The translations under genes and the position numbers were made by a program. The notes under the pieces are model-generated. The model was not told where the DNA came from. It made no database searches and worked only from the letters and a program-made list of their open reading frames with translations. From a phage, in sequence record PZ495249.1: a stretch of DNA of 64,000 bases; one strand, 5' to 3'. This document shows, piece by piece, positions 9,994-61,431 of the stretch (its first letter is position 1; each line of letters begins with the position of its first letter).

Positions 9994-10995
9994 TTAAGCA
10001 GTAGTCAGACGAACAACCAGTTCTGGGCGAGTGTTAACTGCCAGAAGAGAGAATTCAGACTGTAGCTGAACTGTACGGTGTTCTGATACCATGAAGGTAT
10101 ACAGTTCACGAGCAACAGTGTTCGCCAGTTCAGGTGTGTCAGCAGGAGCGTAGTGCGCCTGGAACATATCTGGGATACCCATTGGCAGCACGAATGCTTC
10201 ACCAGCAGGGATGTTTCCGTGGATATCTTCGATGTAAGTTACACCGTTCCATTCGAACACTTGAACGTCCATGTTGCCACTCAGACGGTCACGCAGCAGG
10301 TTTGGAGTACCTTGGAAATACTGGTACGCCTGACGCACGAACGGAGAGTTCACCAGAGAGGCGAAGAACTCGCGAGAGCACAGAGCGATGATACGAGTAG
10401 CGGTAGAACCGTCTTGTTTCTCGTCGATGATGTACGCACGAGCTTCCTGTTCTACAGTTGCCGCAGGGGAAACAGTAGTAGAAGTGAAGTCGATTGGTAC
10501 AACTTTCTGTGTTGCGTTCCATTCTGTGTACCAGTTGTACGCAGAGTTAGCTGCACCACCTGGTCCATTGTACGCGAAACCACGTACTGCATCAGCAAAG
10601 ATAGTTTCTTTGGTTTTGGCTACGTCGCGCATGATTTGAGTCATGTAGCGGTTAACAACTTCCGCTTCGGTACGAAGACTATCGTTGATACCAGCCATAG
10701 CGAAGCTACGGAAGGATTGGATATCCTGTGCCTTAATGTTCTTATCCAGAGGGAAGAACGGAATACGGAAGACTTTAACGCTTGGTGCGTCCATAGTCAG
10801 GAAGTTACGTTCACCACCACGTTCACGGGCAGGAATCAGACCATCAGCGTTTTTCTGTTTACCGATTTCGATAGCAGTAGTCGCGTGATAGTGAGTGTCG
10901 AACAGGCCAAGACTTGCGATCAGAGTATCAGGGGTGTCCTGTAACTCGATCATTGGGCTAAAGTCTACAACCTGGTCCAGAATAATAGCTGGCAT
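9994..10995 (-). CDS. major capsid protein, 333 aa
   Basis: Size and position (after decoration/scaffold genes, before a strong terminator) typical of a major capsid gene. Confidence 0.6.
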   Translation of the reverse strand: MPAIILDQVVDFSPMIELQDTPDTLIASLGLFDTHYHATTAIEIGKQKNADGLIPARERGGERNFLTMDAPSVKVFRIPFFPLDKNIKAQDIQSFRSFAMAGINDSLRTEAEVVNRYMTQIMRDVAKTKETIFADAVRGFAYNGPGGAANSAYNWYTEWNATQKVVPIDFTSTTVSPAATVEQEARAYIIDEKQDGSTATRIIALCSREFFASLVNSPFVRQAYQYFQGTPNLLRDRLSGNMDVQVFEWNGVTYIEDIHGNIPAGEAFVLPMGIPDMFQAHYAPADTPELANTVARELYTFMVSEHRTVQLQSEFSLLAVNTRPELVVRLTTA

Positions 10996-18449: not shown

Positions 18450-18524
18450 TGGTTGTAGCAGATGGAATCGAACCATCATCAATCGGTTATCAGCCGAACG
18501 TATTAGCCGTTATACTATGCCACA
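18450..18524 (-). tRNA. tRNA-Ile (anticodon GAU)
   Basis: Encoded CCA, 7-bp acceptor, T-arm GATGG-AATCGAA-CCATC, anticodon loop reads CUGAUAA. Confidence 0.55.
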
Positions 18525-18530
18525 ATTGTT

Positions 18531-18613
18531 TGGCATCCAGGTGAGGAATCTAACCCCTTGAAACTGGTTTTGGAGGCCAGCAACGGGAACACCCATTTTT
18601 AATCTACCCAGAT
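18531..18613 (-). tRNA. degenerate tRNA-like element or pseudo-tRNA
   Basis: Preceded by the ATTGTTTGG boundary motif; acceptor stem possible with two G.U pairs; T-loop degenerate (AATCTAA); no clean anticodon arm. Confidence 0.2.
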
Positions 18614-18619
18614 ATTGTT

Positions 18620-18695
18620 TGGAGGCGGGAGCCGGAATCGAACCGACCTGCGACAAGCATATGAAACTTGTGAGTTCCCAGAACTCTATCCCGCA
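18620..18695 (-). tRNA. tRNA-Met (anticodon CAU)
   Basis: CCA encoded; T-arm GCCGG-AATCGAA-CCGAC; anticodon loop UUCAUAU; position 1-72 appears mismatched. Confidence 0.5.
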
Positions 18696-18699
18696 CTTT

Positions 18700-18775
18700 T
18701 GGTTGATAGTAAGAGAATCAAACTCTTCTCACAACGCCGTATGAAAGCGTCCGAAACATCAGCTTCACACTATCA
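18700..18775 (-). tRNA. tRNA with CAU anticodon (Met, fMet or Ile-lysidine)
   Basis: Perfect acceptor (TGATAGT/ACTATCA), T-arm AAGAG-AATCAAA-CTCTT, anticodon loop UUCAUAC. Confidence 0.5.
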
Positions 18776-18776
18776 A

Positions 18777-19040
18777 TTAAACACGATGGATTATTTTAAC
18801 TGTCTCACCCTTATCATTCATAAGGTAGGCACTTTCATTCCTATGAATAAAGTCCGTAGAGTTGCCACTAATGACACTTGCAATAACACCATCCAGCTTA
18901 TCATAACCTTCAAAATGATATTGGATGTGTATATTTCCATCAAGTTCTATATAATGTTCTTCTTCATCTACCTCGTAAGGTACTGAGTCATAAATTTTTG
19001 TCCCTTTGGGGAACTTGCGAACTATTTTCAATGTATACAT
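18777..19040 (-). CDS. hypothetical protein, 87 aa, inside the tRNA array
   Basis: ORF with good SD (GAAGGAAATACT-ATG); no recognisable motif. Confidence 0.4.
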   Translation of the reverse strand: MYTLKIVRKFPKGTKIYDSVPYEVDEEEHYIELDGNIHIQYHFEGYDKLDGVIASVISGNSTDFIHRNESAYLMNDKGETVKIIHRV

Positions 19041-19124
19041 AGTATTTCCTTCGTAGTGTTTATATTAGTAATATGCCGTCCCAAGCCGAACGGCGATTAG
19101 TGTTTTAGCTTGGCATTGATAATA

Positions 19125-19199
19125 TGGTACTTCCTGGAGGAATCGAACCACCGACGCTCACCTTGTAAGGATGACGTTCTACCATTGAACTAAGGAAGT
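19125..19199 (-). tRNA. tRNA-Val (anticodon UAC)
   Basis: CCA encoded; perfect acceptor ACTTCCT/AGGAAGT; T-loop AATCGAA; anticodon loop CUUACAA. Confidence 0.55.
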
Positions 19200-19272
19200 A
19201 TGGCGGGGATTTTCCGCACTGTCTATCGCGATATGGACTCGGACAGTGTTCTCGGCTAAATACCCCATTGTT

Positions 19273-19359
19273 TGGTACATCAGGTCAGACTCGAACTGAC
19301 ACGCCCTCACGAGCACTGGAACCTAAATCCAGGGCGTCTACCAATTTCGCCACTGATGC
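19273..19359 (-). tRNA. tRNA-Leu (anticodon UAG), type II
   Basis: 87 nt with long variable arm; T-arm GTCAG-ACTCGAA-CTGAC; anticodon stem CTGGA/TCCAG; loop UUUAGGU. Confidence 0.55.
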
Positions 19360-19367
19360 ATTTAATT

Positions 19368-19444
19368 TGGTGGAGAAGTGGAGAATCGAACTCCATACTC
19401 GAAGGTGCAAACCTCGTGTTTTAACCGAATATTACTACATCCCC
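19368..19444 (-). tRNA. tRNA-Ala (anticodon UGC)
   Basis: CCA encoded; T-arm TGGAG-AATCGAA-CTCCA; anticodon loop UUUGCAC. Confidence 0.45.
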
Positions 19445-19506
19445 AATTTGTATACACTACACAGAAGATAGGTCTGATTGCCTCGGCAGTTGCCGTAGTG
19501 TTTATC

Positions 19507-55475: not shown

Positions 55476-55787
55476 ATGAGAATCACAACAGAAGGTGCTT
55501 TAGTCAACAAAGGTAGGGAGATCTTGGAAAGCCATTTCCCAGACATTGAGAAAACTCCTGGTTATCTTGGCTGGCGTATGCAAGAAACTGTGGATTTTCT
55601 CCCTCATCAAACTTCAATATTTCTTCTCGTCAAAGTAGAAGGTGACACGCCATACAAAGATGTAGCGGAGCACATCGAAAGAGTAGAAGACGTGGCTTAC
55701 GCCGAATTTGCCTACCTGGATATCGCACCAGAATTAGAAGGGAAGGTGAATATATTTATTCTAATGGATTTTGAGGAGGAGACATGA
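55476..55787 (+). CDS. hypothetical protein, 103 aa
   Basis: SD GAGGAGGAGGG-ATG. Confidence 0.4.
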   Translation: MRITTEGALVNKGREILESHFPDIEKTPGYLGWRMQETVDFLPHQTSIFLLVKVEGDTPYKDVAEHIERVEDVAYAEFAYLDIAPELEGKVNIFILMDFEEET

Positions 55788-56521
55788 TCTTATATAAACA
55801 CATCGATCTGAATGATGATCAAGAGTTGTTCATTGTTGGTGATTTGCATGGTTCATATGACCTGTACACCAAGGGTGCTCACATACTTGGTATTCGTGAA
55901 GAAGATGTGGTGATTTCCCTTGGTGATTTAACAGATCGTGGGGAACAGAACTTGCGTTGTGTACTGGAGTTCACCAGAAAGAAAAACCACTATGCTATTC
56001 GTGGTAATCACGAGGACATGATGATCCGTGGTATGCTGGAAGGTAGCAGAGACTACTACCAGTGCTGGTATCAAAATGGTGGCTGGACTGTCTGGAACGA
56101 AATGGGTGAAGAAGGTGTAACTCTTCTTGCCACAATGGTAGAAGAACTGCCTGTGGTGTTGACAGCCTCACATCGTGGGAAAACATATGGCTTCATTCAT
56201 GGTGGATATCCTTCTGTTTTTGAACACTTACCACTTACCGATATTCCAAAACTTAATCTTGAAGGTGAGCGCCTCCAGGCTTTTGCTGAAAGTTTAATGT
56301 GGGATCGCGATATGGTAACTTGTGCTCAGGAAGGTCTAAGTCTGCCGAAAGTTCTTGGTGTGGATTATGTCTTTCATGGACATTCTTACGTACCGGAGCC
56401 GTTGATCAACGCCAACCGTGTTTATATGGACACTGGCGGTGTATTTAACAACAATCTCACCTTTGCATACTTTGATGTGGATGGTGAACTTAAATTTTAT
56501 TCAACTCTTGAGGAGGATTGA
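55784..56521 (+). CDS. PPP-family serine/threonine protein phosphatase (lambda-phosphatase-like), 245 aa
   Basis: Metallophosphatase motifs GDLHG, GDLTDRG, GNHE. Confidence 0.6.
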   Translation: MILYKHIDLNDDQELFIVGDLHGSYDLYTKGAHILGIREEDVVISLGDLTDRGEQNLRCVLEFTRKKNHYAIRGNHEDMMIRGMLEGSRDYYQCWYQNGGWTVWNEMGEEGVTLLATMVEELPVVLTASHRGKTYGFIHGGYPSVFEHLPLTDIPKLNLEGERLQAFAESLMWDRDMVTCAQEGLSLPKVLGVDYVFHGHSYVPEPLINANRVYMDTGGVFNNNLTFAYFDVDGELKFYSTLEED

Positions 56522-56796: not shown

Positions 56797-57369
56797 ATGA
56801 GCGACTTATTTTATACGGGCGTTGGAAGTCGTGATATCACAGATGAAGAATGGGATGTAATGGTAGCTGTTGCCAAATGGTTGGCACAGTGGTGTAAACT
56901 TCGATCAGGTAAAGCCGGAGGTTCGGACTCTGCATTTGAATATGGGGTGTCCTTATCGGACTTCCCTGACAACAAGGAGATCTATATTCCTTGGCCTAAA
57001 TTTGAAGGGAATGAAATTCCAGGTGAAAAGATTTCTCTTGATCGTCCAGACAGCGTAAACTATGCTCTGACTTTGCAGTATGCGAAAGAGATTCATCCGG
57101 CTTGGGATAAACTTTCTCAGGGTGCTAAGAAATTACATCAGAGAAACATACACCAAGTGTTGGGACGAGATCTGGAAAACCCTGCACCATCCATATTCTT
57201 GCTGGCGTGTTCAGACGAGGATAAGAACGGAGATGTGAAAGGCGGTACTCGAACTGCTTGGCTGCTGGCTAAGAAGTTTAATGTTCCGTGTTTCAATATT
57301 CGAGGAAAAACGAAAAGAGAGATCTTCGAATTTATTCAACCTATCTTGAAGGAGAAACTTAATGCTTGA
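56797..57369 (+). CDS. DprA/Smf-like (SLOG-superfamily) Rossmann-fold protein, 190 aa
   Basis: YTGVGSRDIT ... LRSGKAGGSDSAFEYG parallels the DprA core (GSR...SGxAxGxD). Confidence 0.35.
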   Translation: MSDLFYTGVGSRDITDEEWDVMVAVAKWLAQWCKLRSGKAGGSDSAFEYGVSLSDFPDNKEIYIPWPKFEGNEIPGEKISLDRPDSVNYALTLQYAKEIHPAWDKLSQGAKKLHQRNIHQVLGRDLENPAPSIFLLACSDEDKNGDVKGGTRTAWLLAKKFNVPCFNIRGKTKREIFEFIQPILKEKLNA

Positions 57370-57898
57370 TGCATATCAAAGGGGCGGTGCTCGCCCCAAT
57401 ATCAGTGAGATGTATAGTCCGGTTGTCGATTTAACACCAATGATCACTAAACGTGTTATGGATACTATCGAGAAAGGTACATGGGTGGTGAGTGATAAGA
57501 TTGAGTTTCGTTATCACAAGACGATTGTTGCTGTTAGTGACAATGGCGCGGCAATGAATGTTCCATTCTATCCCTTGGATAAGACTCTCACTCAAGAAGA
57601 GATTGAGGAAATTAACCTCCACGTCCTGGGTTATGTCCCATTTGAGAATACGGTCATCCAGACCTACACCACTCTAATGGTAAATGAGATCCTACGCGCA
57701 ATTACCCGTGTCTTGGATGAGGGTGTAAGAAAAATCATCGTACATTTCTGTCCCGCTGATACACCGGAATATGCTAACACTGTGGCTTATCCGCTGTATG
57801 GTTTTATTGCTAATGGTGTTCTTCAAATGGAAACTTCTTTCCTGATTGAAGAAATAAAAAATGACTTTTCTGTTGACATAGATCAAGGTGGTTGGTAA
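57362..57898 (+). CDS. hypothetical protein, 178 aa
   Basis: ORF overlapping the end of the SLOG-like gene. Confidence 0.4.
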   Translation: MLDAYQRGGARPNISEMYSPVVDLTPMITKRVMDTIEKGTWVVSDKIEFRYHKTIVAVSDNGAAMNVPFYPLDKTLTQEEIEEINLHVLGYVPFENTVIQTYTTLMVNEILRAITRVLDEGVRKIIVHFCPADTPEYANTVAYPLYGFIANGVLQMETSFLIEEIKNDFSVDIDQGGW

Positions 57899-57936
57899 AC
57901 TCTTCGGAAATTGTCAATAACAACTGGAGGTAAGAG

Positions 57937-58095
57937 ATGAAAACGACAGAACAACTGATCGCGCAGAAACTGGAAGAAGCAATTGTGATGGCTCGTGCTG
58001 AGGGCTTAGGTCAAAACTATTTCAACATCACCCTCGAAGATGGTGAAAATGTTGAAGTGAACGTTCAATGGCGATCTTCTTCCTATGACTGCTAA
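57937..58095 (+). CDS. small protein, 52 aa, member of the C-terminal WxSSSxxC family
   Basis: SD GGAGGTAAGAG-ATG; ends ...NVQWRSSSYDC-stop; below the supplied track cutoff. Confidence 0.4.
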   Translation: MKTTEQLIAQKLEEAIVMARAEGLGQNYFNITLEDGENVEVNVQWRSSSYDC

Positions 58096-58378
58096 TGTGG
58101 GATTAGAACACTCCTTCCTTGCCTCTTGGCAAGGATGGGATGAAGTGGGAAGTGCAGGTGATCTTTGCTTCTATGGTTGCACTTTAGCGAACCACCTGAA
58201 AGGGATGGAGCCAGAGGGAACCAAGGAGATTATTACAATCTTCCTGATGAGTGAGTCAACTGTGCAATTTGACTTCTACGGTGAGAGCGCGTTTTCTGAC
58301 CCTCGTGATGCTTACTTGGGAAGCAAAGCATTTAAAATTAAAGCAGTATTAGAAGAGGAGATTCCTTGCGATGAGTAA
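58085..58378 (+). CDS. hypothetical protein, 97 aa
   Basis: Track ORF; start uncertain; no tail motif. Confidence 0.3.
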   Translation: MTANVGLEHSFLASWQGWDEVGSAGDLCFYGCTLANHLKGMEPEGTKEIITIFLMSESTVQFDFYGESAFSDPRDAYLGSKAFKIKAVLEEEIPCDE

Positions 58379-58790
58379 ATATGTAACTGGTCAAATTTTT
58401 GAAGACAACTGGGATGACGAAGTGGGGCGTATTGTATACGCTAACGGCATCTGGTCTAACGATGAAGACCGCGCTGCCTTTGAAGATTCGTATGGCGGAA
58501 TGCCGGACGATATGCCAGAGGTGATCCTGTACGAATTCATGTACCATGATGAATTTGTCGAGGGCGAAGCAGCGATCAAAGATTTTGTTCGTGAGCATGG
58601 CCTTATCGACGTTGCAGAGCGTGAGTGTAAAGATCGAGAACGCCAAGTGATTGTTGATACCCTGAATGCAATGGGCGTAGATACCGCCGATCTGATTGTT
58701 TCAGAAGGTCGTGTTTACATGGGGAGCGACGAGTGTGAAGCCTATATTCAAGGCAGTCATGCTTGGTGTTCAAGTAGCATGATTTGCTAA
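58371..58790 (+). CDS. acidic protein, 139 aa, WxSSSxxC family
   Basis: Ends ...GSHAWCSSSMIC-stop. Confidence 0.45.
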   Translation: MSKYVTGQIFEDNWDDEVGRIVYANGIWSNDEDRAAFEDSYGGMPDDMPEVILYEFMYHDEFVEGEAAIKDFVREHGLIDVAERECKDRERQVIVDTLNAMGVDTADLIVSEGRVYMGSDECEAYIQGSHAWCSSSMIC

Positions 58791-58799
58791 GGAGAGTGG

Positions 58800-59234
58800 A
58801 TGTATAATAACACTGATAATCTCGAAGTCGGAAAAGACTTCTACGATCTGAATACTGGTGAGTATGTCTTTACCGTTATTTATGATGGTGACGACGACAC
58901 CCGCATCCTGGTAGAAGGTATCCCAACAAAGGTGCAGAGTCAGTATAGTGATTACATGTATGATATCGTGGCATACAATAAGGACACTATGCACCCTTTA
59001 GACGAAGATGATGTGAACGATATTTGTTACAACAATTTGATTGTCACAAAGGAATATCTGGACGCCATCAATGCCACGAAACAAGTATTGATTAATATCT
59101 GGGAACAATCTGGTATTCAAGAACCATTCGTGTATGAAGATGGGAATTTCTATGTTGGTAAAGAACAAGTTCTTTCAGCCCACATTAATTCCGGCTACGA
59201 ACACGGTTGGATTTCGAGTAGTATCTGCTGGTGA
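58800..59234 (+). CDS. acidic protein, 144 aa, WxSSSxxC family
   Basis: Ends ...YEHGWISSSICW-stop; SD AAGGAGAGTGG-ATG. Confidence 0.45.
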   Translation: MYNNTDNLEVGKDFYDLNTGEYVFTVIYDGDDDTRILVEGIPTKVQSQYSDYMYDIVAYNKDTMHPLDEDDVNDICYNNLIVTKEYLDAINATKQVLINIWEQSGIQEPFVYEDGNFYVGKEQVLSAHINSGYEHGWISSSICW

Positions 59235-59458
59235 GTGTTGGAACTGTAGCGGTATGGATAAAGTCTGAATCTGGTGATGATTATCTGTACTGCTTTGAGA
59301 ACCAATCCTTAGAGCAAATTTCCAACAATCTGACAGAGAACCTGGAAATGTTTTGCCCTATTTGTGATTGGAAAACTACCGGAGACAATAAAGACTTCGT
59401 TAGTGATGTTAAGATGTTTATGTCGGATTTATATGATAAATCATGGGAGAGAGAATGA
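59231..59458 (+). CDS. hypothetical protein, 75 aa
   Basis: ATGA overlap with the upstream gene; no tail motif. Confidence 0.4.
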   Translation: MSVGTVAVWIKSESGDDYLYCFENQSLEQISNNLTENLEMFCPICDWKTTGDNKDFVSDVKMFMSDLYDKSWERE

Positions 59459-59649
59459 GTGAATTTAAAACAGTAAGTGAAGCAGTGGCAGCGGCAAATG
59501 CTGCCCTCGCTGAGGCAGAACGCCTATCTCTGGAAACAGGTGAAGGGTTTGGTTTCCATCCGTGTTATGGTATGGGCGGTTACTTCGATCCAGAAGAAGA
59601 AAACGAGTACACTGGGGATCACTGGTTCCCATCTTCACTGGGTTGCTAA
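59455..59649 (+). CDS. small protein, 64 aa, WxSSSxxC family
   Basis: Start at ATG with SD GGGAGAGAGA; ends ...GDHWFPSSLGC-stop. Confidence 0.45.
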   Translation: MSEFKTVSEAVAAANAALAEAERLSLETGEGFGFHPCYGMGGYFDPEEENEYTGDHWFPSSLGC

Positions 59650-60005
59650 TGCAGCCATTTGAGTGTAAAGTGTTTATTGCAGGGCATGAAGTTATGCCCT
59701 TTGATGAAAACGTGAGTATTGAGATAAGGAGAACACCTGTGGACAAGAAAGAAATTGAAAACCTGATCCGTGAAAAAACTGCTGCTGCCGAAGCCTACAT
59801 GCAGTCTGTGAAAGACGAAGTGGCTGAACTGGCAGATAAAGCTGGCGTTCAGGCTTATTGGGGCGAATATGGTAGCGGTGAAACCTACTACCCTGTTGGT
59901 ACAGATGTAAATGCCGAATACATCGGTTGGGAAGCGAGTGAGTATGCAGATGAGAACGGTATCCTGACTCAAGGTATGTGGATCTCTTCAAGCTCTATGT
60001 GCTAA
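59649..60005 (+). CDS. acidic protein, 118 aa, WxSSSxxC family
   Basis: ATG overlaps the upstream stop (TAATG); ends ...TQGMWISSSSMC-stop. Confidence 0.45.
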   Translation: MQPFECKVFIAGHEVMPFDENVSIEIRRTPVDKKEIENLIREKTAAAEAYMQSVKDEVAELADKAGVQAYWGEYGSGETYYPVGTDVNAEYIGWEASEYADENGILTQGMWISSSSMC

Positions 60006-60018
60006 GAGTGTAACTATT

Positions 60019-60045
60019 AACCCGCTTCGGCGGGTTTTTTATTGC
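60019..60045 (+). terminator. intrinsic terminator
   Basis: CCCGC-TTCG-GCGGG hairpin followed by TTTTTTATT. Confidence 0.5.
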
Positions 60046-60052
60046 CTGAGTA

Positions 60053-60081
60053 TTGACACGTTAATCAAAACCTGGTAAACT
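60053..60081 (+). promoter_or_regulatory. sigma70-like promoter
   Basis: TTGACA - 17 nt - TAAACT directly after the terminator. Confidence 0.4.
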
Positions 60082-60111: not shown

Positions 60112-61041
60112 ATGATTATGGTTGGTAGCCGTGGTTTAGAGATTCAATTAGAACGGGAGGCTAAGAAATTTTATCGCCCTTGTCTTGATCTTGACTTTCT
60201 TTGCACAGAGAAGGAGTGGAGTATAGCATTCATCCGTTACACCCACGAAGAAGGCGTTGAGCTTGTGGAACGTACTGGCAACAAAGGTCATGTCAAACTG
60301 ACAGATGGGACACATATCGAGTTTGATATTGCTCAACCTGGCGATAGCACAGATATTCTGATCCAATATTGCAAGGCAAACCCACAGAGTATGTTCCTTA
60401 ACAACGGTGATTTCGTGGCTCCGGTGGATGTTCTGTATCTGCTGAAAATGAGTCATCGTTATAAGAAGAATAGCCCTCATTTCTTCAAGACCATGAATGA
60501 TATCCATTTCATGCGTTCTCTTGGGGCTAAGATCCCAGTGGAATTAGAAGAAGTGTTTAAGCTGCGTGAGAAAGAGACTTACGATTACTCACACCCAAAT
60601 CTGGATGTGAAGAGCAAAGACTTCTTCAAAGGTGATGAAGTGCCGTATGTTTACGATCACGACACGATTCATGAAGCAGTGGCGGTGTTGGGTGTACCTG
60701 CATACAAATCTTACATGAAAGATGACAGCGAAGTGATGACTTCCAAAGAGAAGTTCTTTGAACAGGAAAATCATATCCGTCTTCTCGGTGTGTACGAAGA
60801 GAGCTGCGTACTGGCACTGGAACGTTCGCAGATTCCGTTCAATTTCGAGGTTCCGGCTCGTCAGAGTTTTGTTATGGCACTTAGTAAAGTTTGCACATCG
60901 ATCACTTCCGGCTGGTTCCGTGAGTACGCCTGGGAGAACTTCGGGGTTGTCATGAAGTTCTATGAAAGCATGGGTGAAACTGATTACATTGAGCGATTCA
61001 AAGCTAATCAACACCTGGTTAAACCATTCGAGGGGGAATAA
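60112..61041 (+). CDS. hypothetical protein, 309 aa
   Basis: SD GAGAGGAGAAACATT-ATG; no motif recognised. Confidence 0.4.
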   Translation: MIMVGSRGLEIQLEREAKKFYRPCLDLDFLCTEKEWSIAFIRYTHEEGVELVERTGNKGHVKLTDGTHIEFDIAQPGDSTDILIQYCKANPQSMFLNNGDFVAPVDVLYLLKMSHRYKKNSPHFFKTMNDIHFMRSLGAKIPVELEEVFKLREKETYDYSHPNLDVKSKDFFKGDEVPYVYDHDTIHEAVAVLGVPAYKSYMKDDSEVMTSKEKFFEQENHIRLLGVYEESCVLALERSQIPFNFEVPARQSFVMALSKVCTSITSGWFREYAWENFGVVMKFYESMGETDYIERFKANQHLVKPFEGE

Positions 61042-61431
61042 ATGGGTTATTTAAATGATACATACATCACACCTACTAAGGATCAATTAAGTATGGCTCT
61101 TATTAAGGTGAAACGTGTGCGCGAACTCTACAAACCAATTAATGAGCGTTTGGAGAAGGAGACAGTAGAGGTTAAAAGTTGGTGGGGTTTACGCCGTAAG
61201 GTGATGACTAAAGATCAGCACATCCGTAAAGCTAACGAAAATTCTTTCATGCCGTTTTATGGTCGTGCATTTCTGCTCGGATACATAACAGCAGAAGAAT
61301 ACCAAATCTGCCGTTTCCTGATGGAGGCTCCAGGAGTGAAGACACTCCAAAAATGGGAAACAGCGGAGAGAGTATATCTTTGTGAAGATGACCACAGACA
61401 GTTGATGTTTGCTTTAACTGAGGAGATTTAA
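61042..61431 (+). CDS. hypothetical protein, 129 aa
   Basis: ATG immediately after the upstream stop. Confidence 0.4.
   Translation: MGYLNDTYITPTKDQLSMALIKVKRVRELYKPINERLEKETVEVKSWWGLRRKVMTKDQHIRKANENSFMPFYGRAFLLGYITAEEYQICRFLMEAPGVKTLQKWETAERVYLCEDDHRQLMFALTEEI

Follow-up and report, generated by a model that had tools for sequence, protein, structure and literature searches.

The 64,000-nucleotide stretch of phage DNA analyzed here (sequence record PZ495249.1; hereafter the window) contains, at positions 57937-60005, a block of seven plus-strand open reading frames (ORFs) that are packed tightly or overlap, and five of these encode small proteins that end in a common tail of the form W-x-[S/P]-S-S-x-x-C. 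That five tandem plus-strand ORFs share such a tail, with a Cys at or next to the end, had been proposed in an original prediction made from the DNA letters alone, and both the translations and a six-frame scan confirmed it. The first tail protein (57937-58095, 52 amino acids) ends in QWRSSSYDC and is the smallest member, with a helix and a short beta region followed by the tail. The second (58371-58790, 139 amino acids) ends in AWCSSSMIC, and the third (58800-59234, 144 amino acids) ends in GWISSSICW, with the Cys in penultimate position. The fourth (59455-59649, 64 amino acids, HWFPSSLGC) begins in an ATGA overlap with the upstream stop codon, and the fifth (59649-60005, 118 amino acids, MWISSSSMC), which has an N-terminal extension, follows through a TAATG overlap. 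The two remaining plus-strand ORFs lack the tail. One is 58085-58378 (97 amino acids, phrog_4991), for which the real start may be the GTG at 58097, as the ortholog in Klebsiella phage KP13-26 begins MAGLEHSF; the other is 59231-59458 (75 amino acids, phrog_2900), which contains the residues CPICDW.

A promoter and a terminator had been predicted to bracket the block, and we found both on the plus strand. A sigma-70-like promoter (TTGACA-17-TAAACT plus a TG extension, 57873-57901), identified by consensus match only, stands in the intergenic gap before 57937, and a hairpin followed by a T-run (60019-60036), which resembles an intrinsic terminator, closes the block. The same hexamers recur downstream in another sigma-70-like promoter (60053-60081), after which comes a plus-strand gene of 309 codons (60112-61041) that we refer to as the partner gene and that is separated from the block by 107 bp. 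The two promoters are the top two sigma-70-like scores in the region of 54.5-62.5 kb (10 of 12 matches). In Pfam searches, the partner protein was found to consist of a DUF7277 domain (residues 1-87, E 3e-8) and a DUF7275 domain (residues 107-294, E 4e-76).

The Ser codons of the tails vary from copy to copy (TCT, TCC, TCA, AGT, AGC and TCG), and the tails are not covered by any DNA repeat. Since the codons differ and there is no such repeat, selection acts on the peptide, in agreement with what had been claimed for this block. When all six frames of the window were scanned for W-x-S-S-S at most four residues from a stop codon, the tail ORFs were recovered together with one other match, which lies in a 62-amino-acid minus-strand ORF antisense to a longer ORF; the scan gave no further plausible gene with a tail ending in the 64-kb window. 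A rough estimate from residue frequencies puts the chance of such an ending at approximately 1e-7 per ORF.

The tail is also retained in homologs. The DNA of this region is approximately 73-77% identical to that of the Klebsiella phages KP13-26 (Stephanstirmvirinae) and KP2025, and KP13-26 encodes orthologs of all five tail proteins with their tails intact, plus a sixth member ending in VWVTSSC. The ortholog of the first protein retains its tail, that of the second reads WCSSSMTC, and that of the third has an identical tail. Homologs from distant phages have the tail as well. The family behind it corresponds to phrog_899, which matches 59455-59649 (E 1e-6) and 59649-60005 (E 2e-12) over their C-terminal parts. 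With 59649-60005 as a tblastn query we obtained hits in 429 phage records, many of them from T4-like Straboviridae, with three tandem members in Mosigvirus MM02 and five in Dhakavirus JS10. An exhaustive search of 1.84 billion representative proteins with a 14-member profile (E ≤0.001) delineated a phage-only family of 229 clusters at 50% identity, nearly all of 65-110 amino acids. The matches to P0060 and P0108, both of them long repeat proteins, were rejected as spurious. Among the matches listed, nearly all extend to the C-terminus.

From N- to C-terminus, the family consensus comprises an amphipathic helix (...EAxxIADExG), F-x-F, AYGMGGTY(Y)P, an acidic linker of variable sequence, and GGW-x-S-S-S-x-x-C. 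Among 145 representatives drawn from the 229 clusters, the Trp of the tail is present in all 145, as is the Ser at +3, while position +4 is Ser or Thr in 144 and position +7 is Cys in 140; in 133 of them the Cys is the final residue of the protein. Outside the tail the mean column identity is 12%, so the tail is the best-conserved part of these proteins, which are acidic (median isoelectric point 4.5). Strong selection acts on the tail at the peptide level, and the tail behaves like the recognition signal that it had been suspected to be. Two variants end in ...WHNSNWSNSES/A (1628-1879 of the locus from Acinetobacter phage Lazarus, L030, and L021 6181-6372), without the terminal Cys and with Asn in place of Ser; these may be decayed copies or members of altered specificity. 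Scans of the small proteins of the window against Pfam, NCBIfam and PADLOC returned nothing above noise.

The bodies of the five proteins had been described as dissimilar apart from the tail. To compare them, we used hhalign against a family profile from which the rows of the window had been removed, with and without the last nine residues of each protein. Removing the tail changed E from 9e-16 to 1e-12 for 59455-59649 and from 9e-15 to 2e-9 for 59649-60005. By sequence these two are homologous family members, in which the tail is the family's own C-terminus, and the description does not hold for them; 59455-59649, with its helix, F-x-F, CYGMGGYF, acidic linker and WFPSSLGC, has the features of a canonical member. 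It does hold for 57937-58095, 58371-58790 and 58800-59234. With the tail these three gave weak matches (probability 13-47%), and without it no family homology was detectable by hhalign (E 0.07-0.5); the weak family hidden Markov model match of 58800-59234 (E 2.7e-4) was likewise lost once its tail was cut. As their match vanishes without the tail, the tail is the only demonstrable element that these three proteins share with the family. The tail-less ORFs of the block, which served as negative controls, gave hhalign scores at noise level.

Additional W-x-S-S copies occur inside family members. We counted 29 of these, in 24 of the 145 proteins, against 0.7 expected from shuffling (an approximately 40-fold enrichment), and they sit in the acidic linkers, often followed by x-Cys. 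Two or three linker copies of W-x-S-S-(x)-C are found in P0043, P0068, P0110, P0157 and the KP13-26 protein L001 5521-5835 (an example being RWESSSEGWESSSEGWVSSSSQC). The AlphaFold2 model of 59455-59649, computed from the 145-sequence alignment, had a predicted local distance difference test score (pLDDT) of 76 and contained a helix (residues 7-28) and a hairpin (32-34/42-44); its lowest-confidence part was the tail, with a pLDDT of approximately 54-55 versus at least 90 for the helix. A model made from 14 sequences was poor past the helix. Taken together, the enrichment of internal copies and the low model confidence fit a short linear motif. A Foldseek search with the small-protein model retrieved nothing from the PDB at E <6, and from BFVD it retrieved only uncharacterized phage proteins resembling family members; searching the PDB with sequences and profiles of the small family gave only helix-composition matches to designed helical proteins.

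The tail genes are linked to the partner gene well beyond the window. In a forward test we examined 27 loci (22 from IMG/VR that had been fetched by the peptide AYGMGGT alone, four phage loci and the window), and a DUF7275 gene lay downstream of the tail genes on the same strand in 26 of them; in the single exception the contig stops right after its tail genes. Three further metagenome contigs have the same arrangement, one of them with four tandem tail genes and the partner 13 bp on. Where the upstream gap could be measured (30 loci), tail genes and partner were 13 to 1372 bp apart. A tblastn search with the partner itself hit 734 phage records, and for the reverse test twelve diverse records were picked by partner match alone, seven of which were proteobacterial phages with a full-length partner. 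Adjacent tail ORFs, one to three in number, were present in six of these seven (Pseudomonas M5.1, Erwinia Kaldavass, Ralstonia RsoM2USA, Acinetobacter Lazarus, Shewanella Thanatos-1 and Stenotrophomonas Ps15), and the seventh, Pseudoalteromonas H101, has a degenerate ending, ...EWYESRC. A regular expression for the tail, applied to 38 related loci, found one to six ORFs per locus on the partner strand in 32 loci and matched none of 2587 control ORFs on the opposite strand. When the gene neighborhoods were clustered all against all, the tail family and the partner were the only genes common across lineages, and there was no third. This linkage spans T4-like phages, Stephanstirmvirinae, Otagovirus, Erwinia and Ralstonia jumbo phages and unclassified metagenomic contigs. 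In every testable proteobacterial-phage or metagenomic locus, one to six tail genes thus adjoin a DUF7277+DUF7275 gene.

In phages of Gordonia, Rhodococcus and Mycobacterium, the genes for distant DUF7275 homologs precede tandem arrays, each with two or three members of another small acidic protein family, which has the pattern ...GGEGxGDxYW...RYFKRxG[WY]Y[AS]S[WFY]xGxx[WY]xGPTxEVxPxxKxITV[WY]. Vibrio phage R10Z has a single member of this other family just upstream of its DUF7275 gene, and in Rhodococcus phage NiceHouse a second triplet, of yet another family, stands upstream. These arrangements (L035 3603-4423; L036 3608-4647 and 1744-2863; L038 3612-4707; L037 2552-2848) suggest that the DUF7275 enzyme family is generally paired with arrays of small proteins.

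As for the partner protein, alignments of 15-25 diverse homologs showed G5, S6, D26 and D28 to be invariant and E70 to be nearly so, and these G-S...D-x-D...E residues lie on a strand-helix-strand (beta-alpha-beta) pattern. The arrangement hG[GS], some 15-20 residues, DxD and a third carboxylate on a later strand is therefore present in the partner, and we consider it a probable Pol-beta-type nucleotidyltransferase signature, which makes the partner a putative enzyme of this type. The G-S...D-x-D residues are kept in the shorter homologs of actinobacterial and Vibrio phages, two GenBank records annotate homologs of the partner as nucleotidyltransferase, and in one homolog the Pfam MdcG family matches exactly over the motif (E 4.7e-4), this being its only non-DUF Pfam match. 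The DUF7275 domain, which looks helical, has more than 25 invariant polar residues and is rich in His, Asp, Glu, Lys and Arg; K112, H115, H161, D182-H183-D184, H187, E229, E230, E237, R238, K259, C261 and W268 are among the invariant positions. These residues imply a second functional site, as would suit substrate binding or catalysis. Its D-H-D-x-x-H motif and the other invariant His, Asp and Glu residues led us to consider an HD phosphohydrolase, which was rejected as there was no Pfam HD match and the hhalign comparison with an HD protein of a phage had an E of 0.33. We also abandoned a HEPN-like R-x6-H reading of the partner, as distant homologs conserve neither the Arg nor the second His.

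These data suggest that the two kinds of gene form a module that is an undescribed tag-and-enzyme system, and it is very probable that the tail proteins are functionally coupled to the DUF7277+DUF7275 enzyme. The block would be the variable half of a two-component early module, made up of small, acidic, fast-diverging proteins (five here), each of which carries the motif (E/D/G)-G-W-x-[S/A/P]-S-S-x-x-Cys-COOH at its extreme C-terminus, and the single DUF7277+DUF7275 enzyme (60112-61041) would be the other half, to which the tail would couple each small protein. In the mechanism that we propose, the helical DUF7275 domain would bind the Trp together with the carboxylate and thiol of the C-terminal Cys, after which the N-terminal Pol-beta-type domain would move a nucleotidyl or other phosphodiester-linked group onto one or both of the invariant Ser hydroxyls, and internal W-x-S-S copies would provide additional sites. 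Once modified, the small proteins would go on to act on the host at an early stage of infection, their differing bodies corresponding to differing targets. Our specific substrate model, in which the Ser residues of the tail are nucleotidylylation acceptor sites for the partner, is a tentative one to which we would give somewhat less than an even chance. More doubtful is the broader proposal of a phage protein-tagging system, in which a nucleotidyltransferase-like enzyme would covalently modify the C-terminal W-x-S-S-x-x-Cys (with a Ser-linked nucleotide, a nucleotide polymer or a Ser/Cys cross-link) and so arm or regulate host-directed effectors, while the same enzyme family would serve non-homologous arrays in actinobacterial phages. 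Such tagging would extend over large lytic phages of Gram-negative bacteria, many of them T4-like, that infect E. coli, Klebsiella, Acinetobacter and Aeromonas.

Several observations weigh against the proposed mechanism. The nucleotidyltransferase assignment is motif-based and is not statistically secured: the MdcG match scored 20.5 bits against a cut-off of 26.5 and appeared in only one of 17 homologs, hhalign against an alignment of the RlaP nucleotidyltransferase placed G-S and D-x-D in register with P = 0.03 and a probability of 1.7%, and PDB profile searches with the partner returned nothing relevant. The linkage has its irregularities as well, as in the window a terminator and a separate promoter divide the partner from the array, the tail genes of Stenotrophomonas phage Ps15 are downstream of the partner, and the distant DUF7275 homologs of actinobacterial phages, Vibrio phage R10Z and roseophage DSS3_VP1 are without tail genes. 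Furthermore, nucleotidylylation of Ser would by itself leave the need for a terminal Cys unexplained; this residue may serve for recognition by way of its thiol and carboxylate, or a later reaction may involve it.

The linkage data fit equally well with an arrangement in which nothing is modified and the tail is a docking handle, the small proteins being interchangeable adaptors or regulators that bind DUF7275 non-covalently and guide the enzyme, switch it on or hold it back, while its real substrate would be a nucleic acid, protein or small molecule of the host or phage. Variable bodies with a constant tail and one to six paralogs per genome would suit an adaptor set, and a strict free C-terminal Cys (133 of 145) is typical of C-terminal peptide recognition. 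Nevertheless, we think this unlikely, since the enriched internal W-x-S-S copies have no free C-terminus and fit multiple acceptor sites better, a pair of invariant neighboring Ser residues would be unusual if the tail served for docking alone, and the gene neighborhood suggests no other substrate. Alternatively, the tail might simply be the structural ending of a fast-evolving paralog family, engaged for example in oligomerization or core packing, with DUF7275 being adjacent because the genes share a mobile or early-gene cassette and not because their products interact directly. True homology links two of the five proteins, alignments show a common arrangement of helix, Gly and beta-strand in all five, and the AlphaFold2 model has a beta bridge at residues 58-59, all of which is in line with such a role; yet the linkage persists across lineages that have no other gene in common there, the tail has the lowest model confidence, it is repeated inside disordered acidic linkers, and it survives on bodies without detectable homology, so that we rate this explanation as quite unlikely.

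A terminal tag common to dissimilar proteins also resembles degrons and targeting signals, and the tail could then be a degradation, localization or virion-packaging signal read by machinery other than the neighboring enzyme. ssrA-type C-terminal degrons are non-polar (such as L-A-A-COOH), unlike the tails here, which finish in polar residues and a Cys. Co-packaging or virion targeting, which had been listed among the possible functions, found no support; the block stands behind an early-looking sigma-70-type promoter among early-type genes. A host-read signal would also leave unexplained the one-to-one linkage to DUF7275 across Escherichia, Acinetobacter, Pseudomonas, Ralstonia and Shewanella phages, and we regard it as very unlikely. 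The requirement for Cys would be accounted for if the tail were cross-linked as in ribosomally synthesized and post-translationally modified peptides, with Ser being activated (e.g. by DUF7277 nucleotidylylation) and converted to dehydroalanine, which the terminal Cys would attack to form a lanthionine-like or aminovinyl-cysteine (AviCys)-like ring, and with DUF7275 acting as lyase or cyclase. An invariant Ser-Ser lies 3-4 residues ahead of the invariant terminal Cys, a spacing that matches that of lanthionine and AviCys rings, and tandem precursor-like genes stand beside one enzyme with two conserved polar sites. However, no LanB-, LanM-, LanKC-, LanL- or LanD-type domain, protease or exporter was found among the window proteins or in the conserved neighborhood, the Ser-to-Cys spacing varies with zero to two intervening residues (WVTSSC, WHSSNC and WxSSSxxC), the Cys is not terminal in one window protein, and we know of no dehydration driven by a nucleotidyltransferase. 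We consider this chemistry the least probable of the alternatives.

The proposed tag-and-enzyme system has partial counterparts among known systems. In the CitX/MdcG holo-acyl carrier protein (ACP) synthases of citrate lyase and malonate decarboxylase, a Pol-beta-type nucleotidyltransferase puts a phosphodiester-linked group on a Ser of a small acidic protein that is encoded nearby. The module resembles these in pairing an enzyme with a nearby gene for a small acidic protein, and in the MdcG match, itself below threshold, over the G-S...D-x-D of the partner; it differs in lacking a CitG/MdcB-type prosthetic-group synthase, in that the small proteins have no ACP homology, and in having a C-terminal acceptor motif and several paralogous candidate acceptors. 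In GlnD-PII, GlnE-glutamine synthetase and MntA-HepT, the nucleotidyltransferase also has a second, helical domain and modifies its partner protein at a side-chain hydroxyl, and MNT and HEPN genes are adjacent. The acceptors in those systems are Tyr residues in folded domains, whereas the candidate acceptor here is a Ser-Ser in a terminal linear motif, and our searches brought up no sequence similarity to any of these families. In the Pfam, NCBIfam and PADLOC scans, the small proteins of the window likewise showed no homology to PII, to HEPN or to the ACPs of the citrate lyase and malonate decarboxylase systems. Tandem precursor-like genes, a conserved Ser/Cys motif at ring-compatible spacing, an adjoining putative modifying enzyme and peptide-level selection are shared with lanthipeptide and AviCys systems, but a known dehydratase, cyclase, decarboxylase, leader protease and exporter are missing, and acidic proteins of 50-150 amino acids with a confidently predicted helix are not of leader-plus-core type. 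The capsid-targeting sequence of the T4 internal proteins is likewise a short tag common to unrelated small proteins; it is N-terminal and cleaved by the prohead protease, and the proteins are co-packaged, whereas the tag here is C-terminal, on proteins with dissimilar N-termini, and belongs to an early-type unit with an enzyme partner. Catalog entries exist for two window proteins (phrog_899) and for the partner (DUF7277 and DUF7275), and these entries carry no function. Full-text literature searches gave no mention of the tail motif, of phrog_899, DUF7275 or DUF7277, or of the linkage between the families, which agrees with the view in the original prediction that this is not a described family. 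Since the small proteins show the defining features of no characterized family, and the partner shows such features at the motif level only, we place the module outside described systems and treat its biochemistry as putative.

Other genes surround the module. A SLOG-like protein and a PPP phosphatase had been pointed out next to the block, and their identities stand: 56797-57369 and 55784-56521 encode a DprA/SLOG/LOG-like protein and a metallophosphoesterase/PPP-type Ser/Thr phosphatase, respectively. As conserved partners of the module, however, we rejected both, because sequence homologs were found only in the two closest relatives; the universal partner is 60112-61041, on the other side of the block. 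By annotation only, the module has a LOG-like protein in its vicinity in Stenotrophomonas phage Ps15 (L033 1149-1652), and in Erwinia phage Kaldavass it has a NinI-like phosphatase nearby (L028 4427-5206). Two T4-like loci have homologs of the tail-less ORF 59231-59458 (phrog_2900) in the neighborhood of the module (L007 9271-9522 and L019 7463-7726), and this protein may be an occasional third component. Directly upstream of the block, 57362-57898 encodes a 178-amino-acid protein (phrog_8569) that has a paralog-like match at 9994-10995 on the minus strand. Downstream of the partner, 61431-62108 is an ORF of 225 amino acids whose KP2025 homolog is annotated as a DNA cytosine methyltransferase, and in related phages a SIR2/CobB-like NAD-dependent deacylase follows (window positions approximately 63500-64000). 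With these methyltransferase-annotated and deacylase neighbors, the surroundings of the module are rich in early genes related to nucleotides and NAD. Elsewhere in the window, a minus-strand cluster at 18450-23838 holds 23 tRNA genes, including one at 22066-22140 with a CTA anticodon (labeled tRNA-Pyl by ARAGORN) that, judged by its anticodon, looks like an amber suppressor. Some homologs are located beside tRNA clusters; a link to tRNA genes was rejected, the cluster in the window being 36 kb away.

If the tail is a tag that is read by the neighboring enzyme, the module would represent a new way for a single phage enzyme to deal with an entire set of early proteins, and the tag-and-enzyme pair could serve as a protein-labeling tool. 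Arrays of one to six diverging paralogs suggest an arms race against targets in the host, which makes the module a candidate source of anti-defense or host-takeover factors. Altogether, if the proposal is true, it would add a new protein modification or recognition code, carried by hundreds of sequenced phages whose hosts are clinically important.

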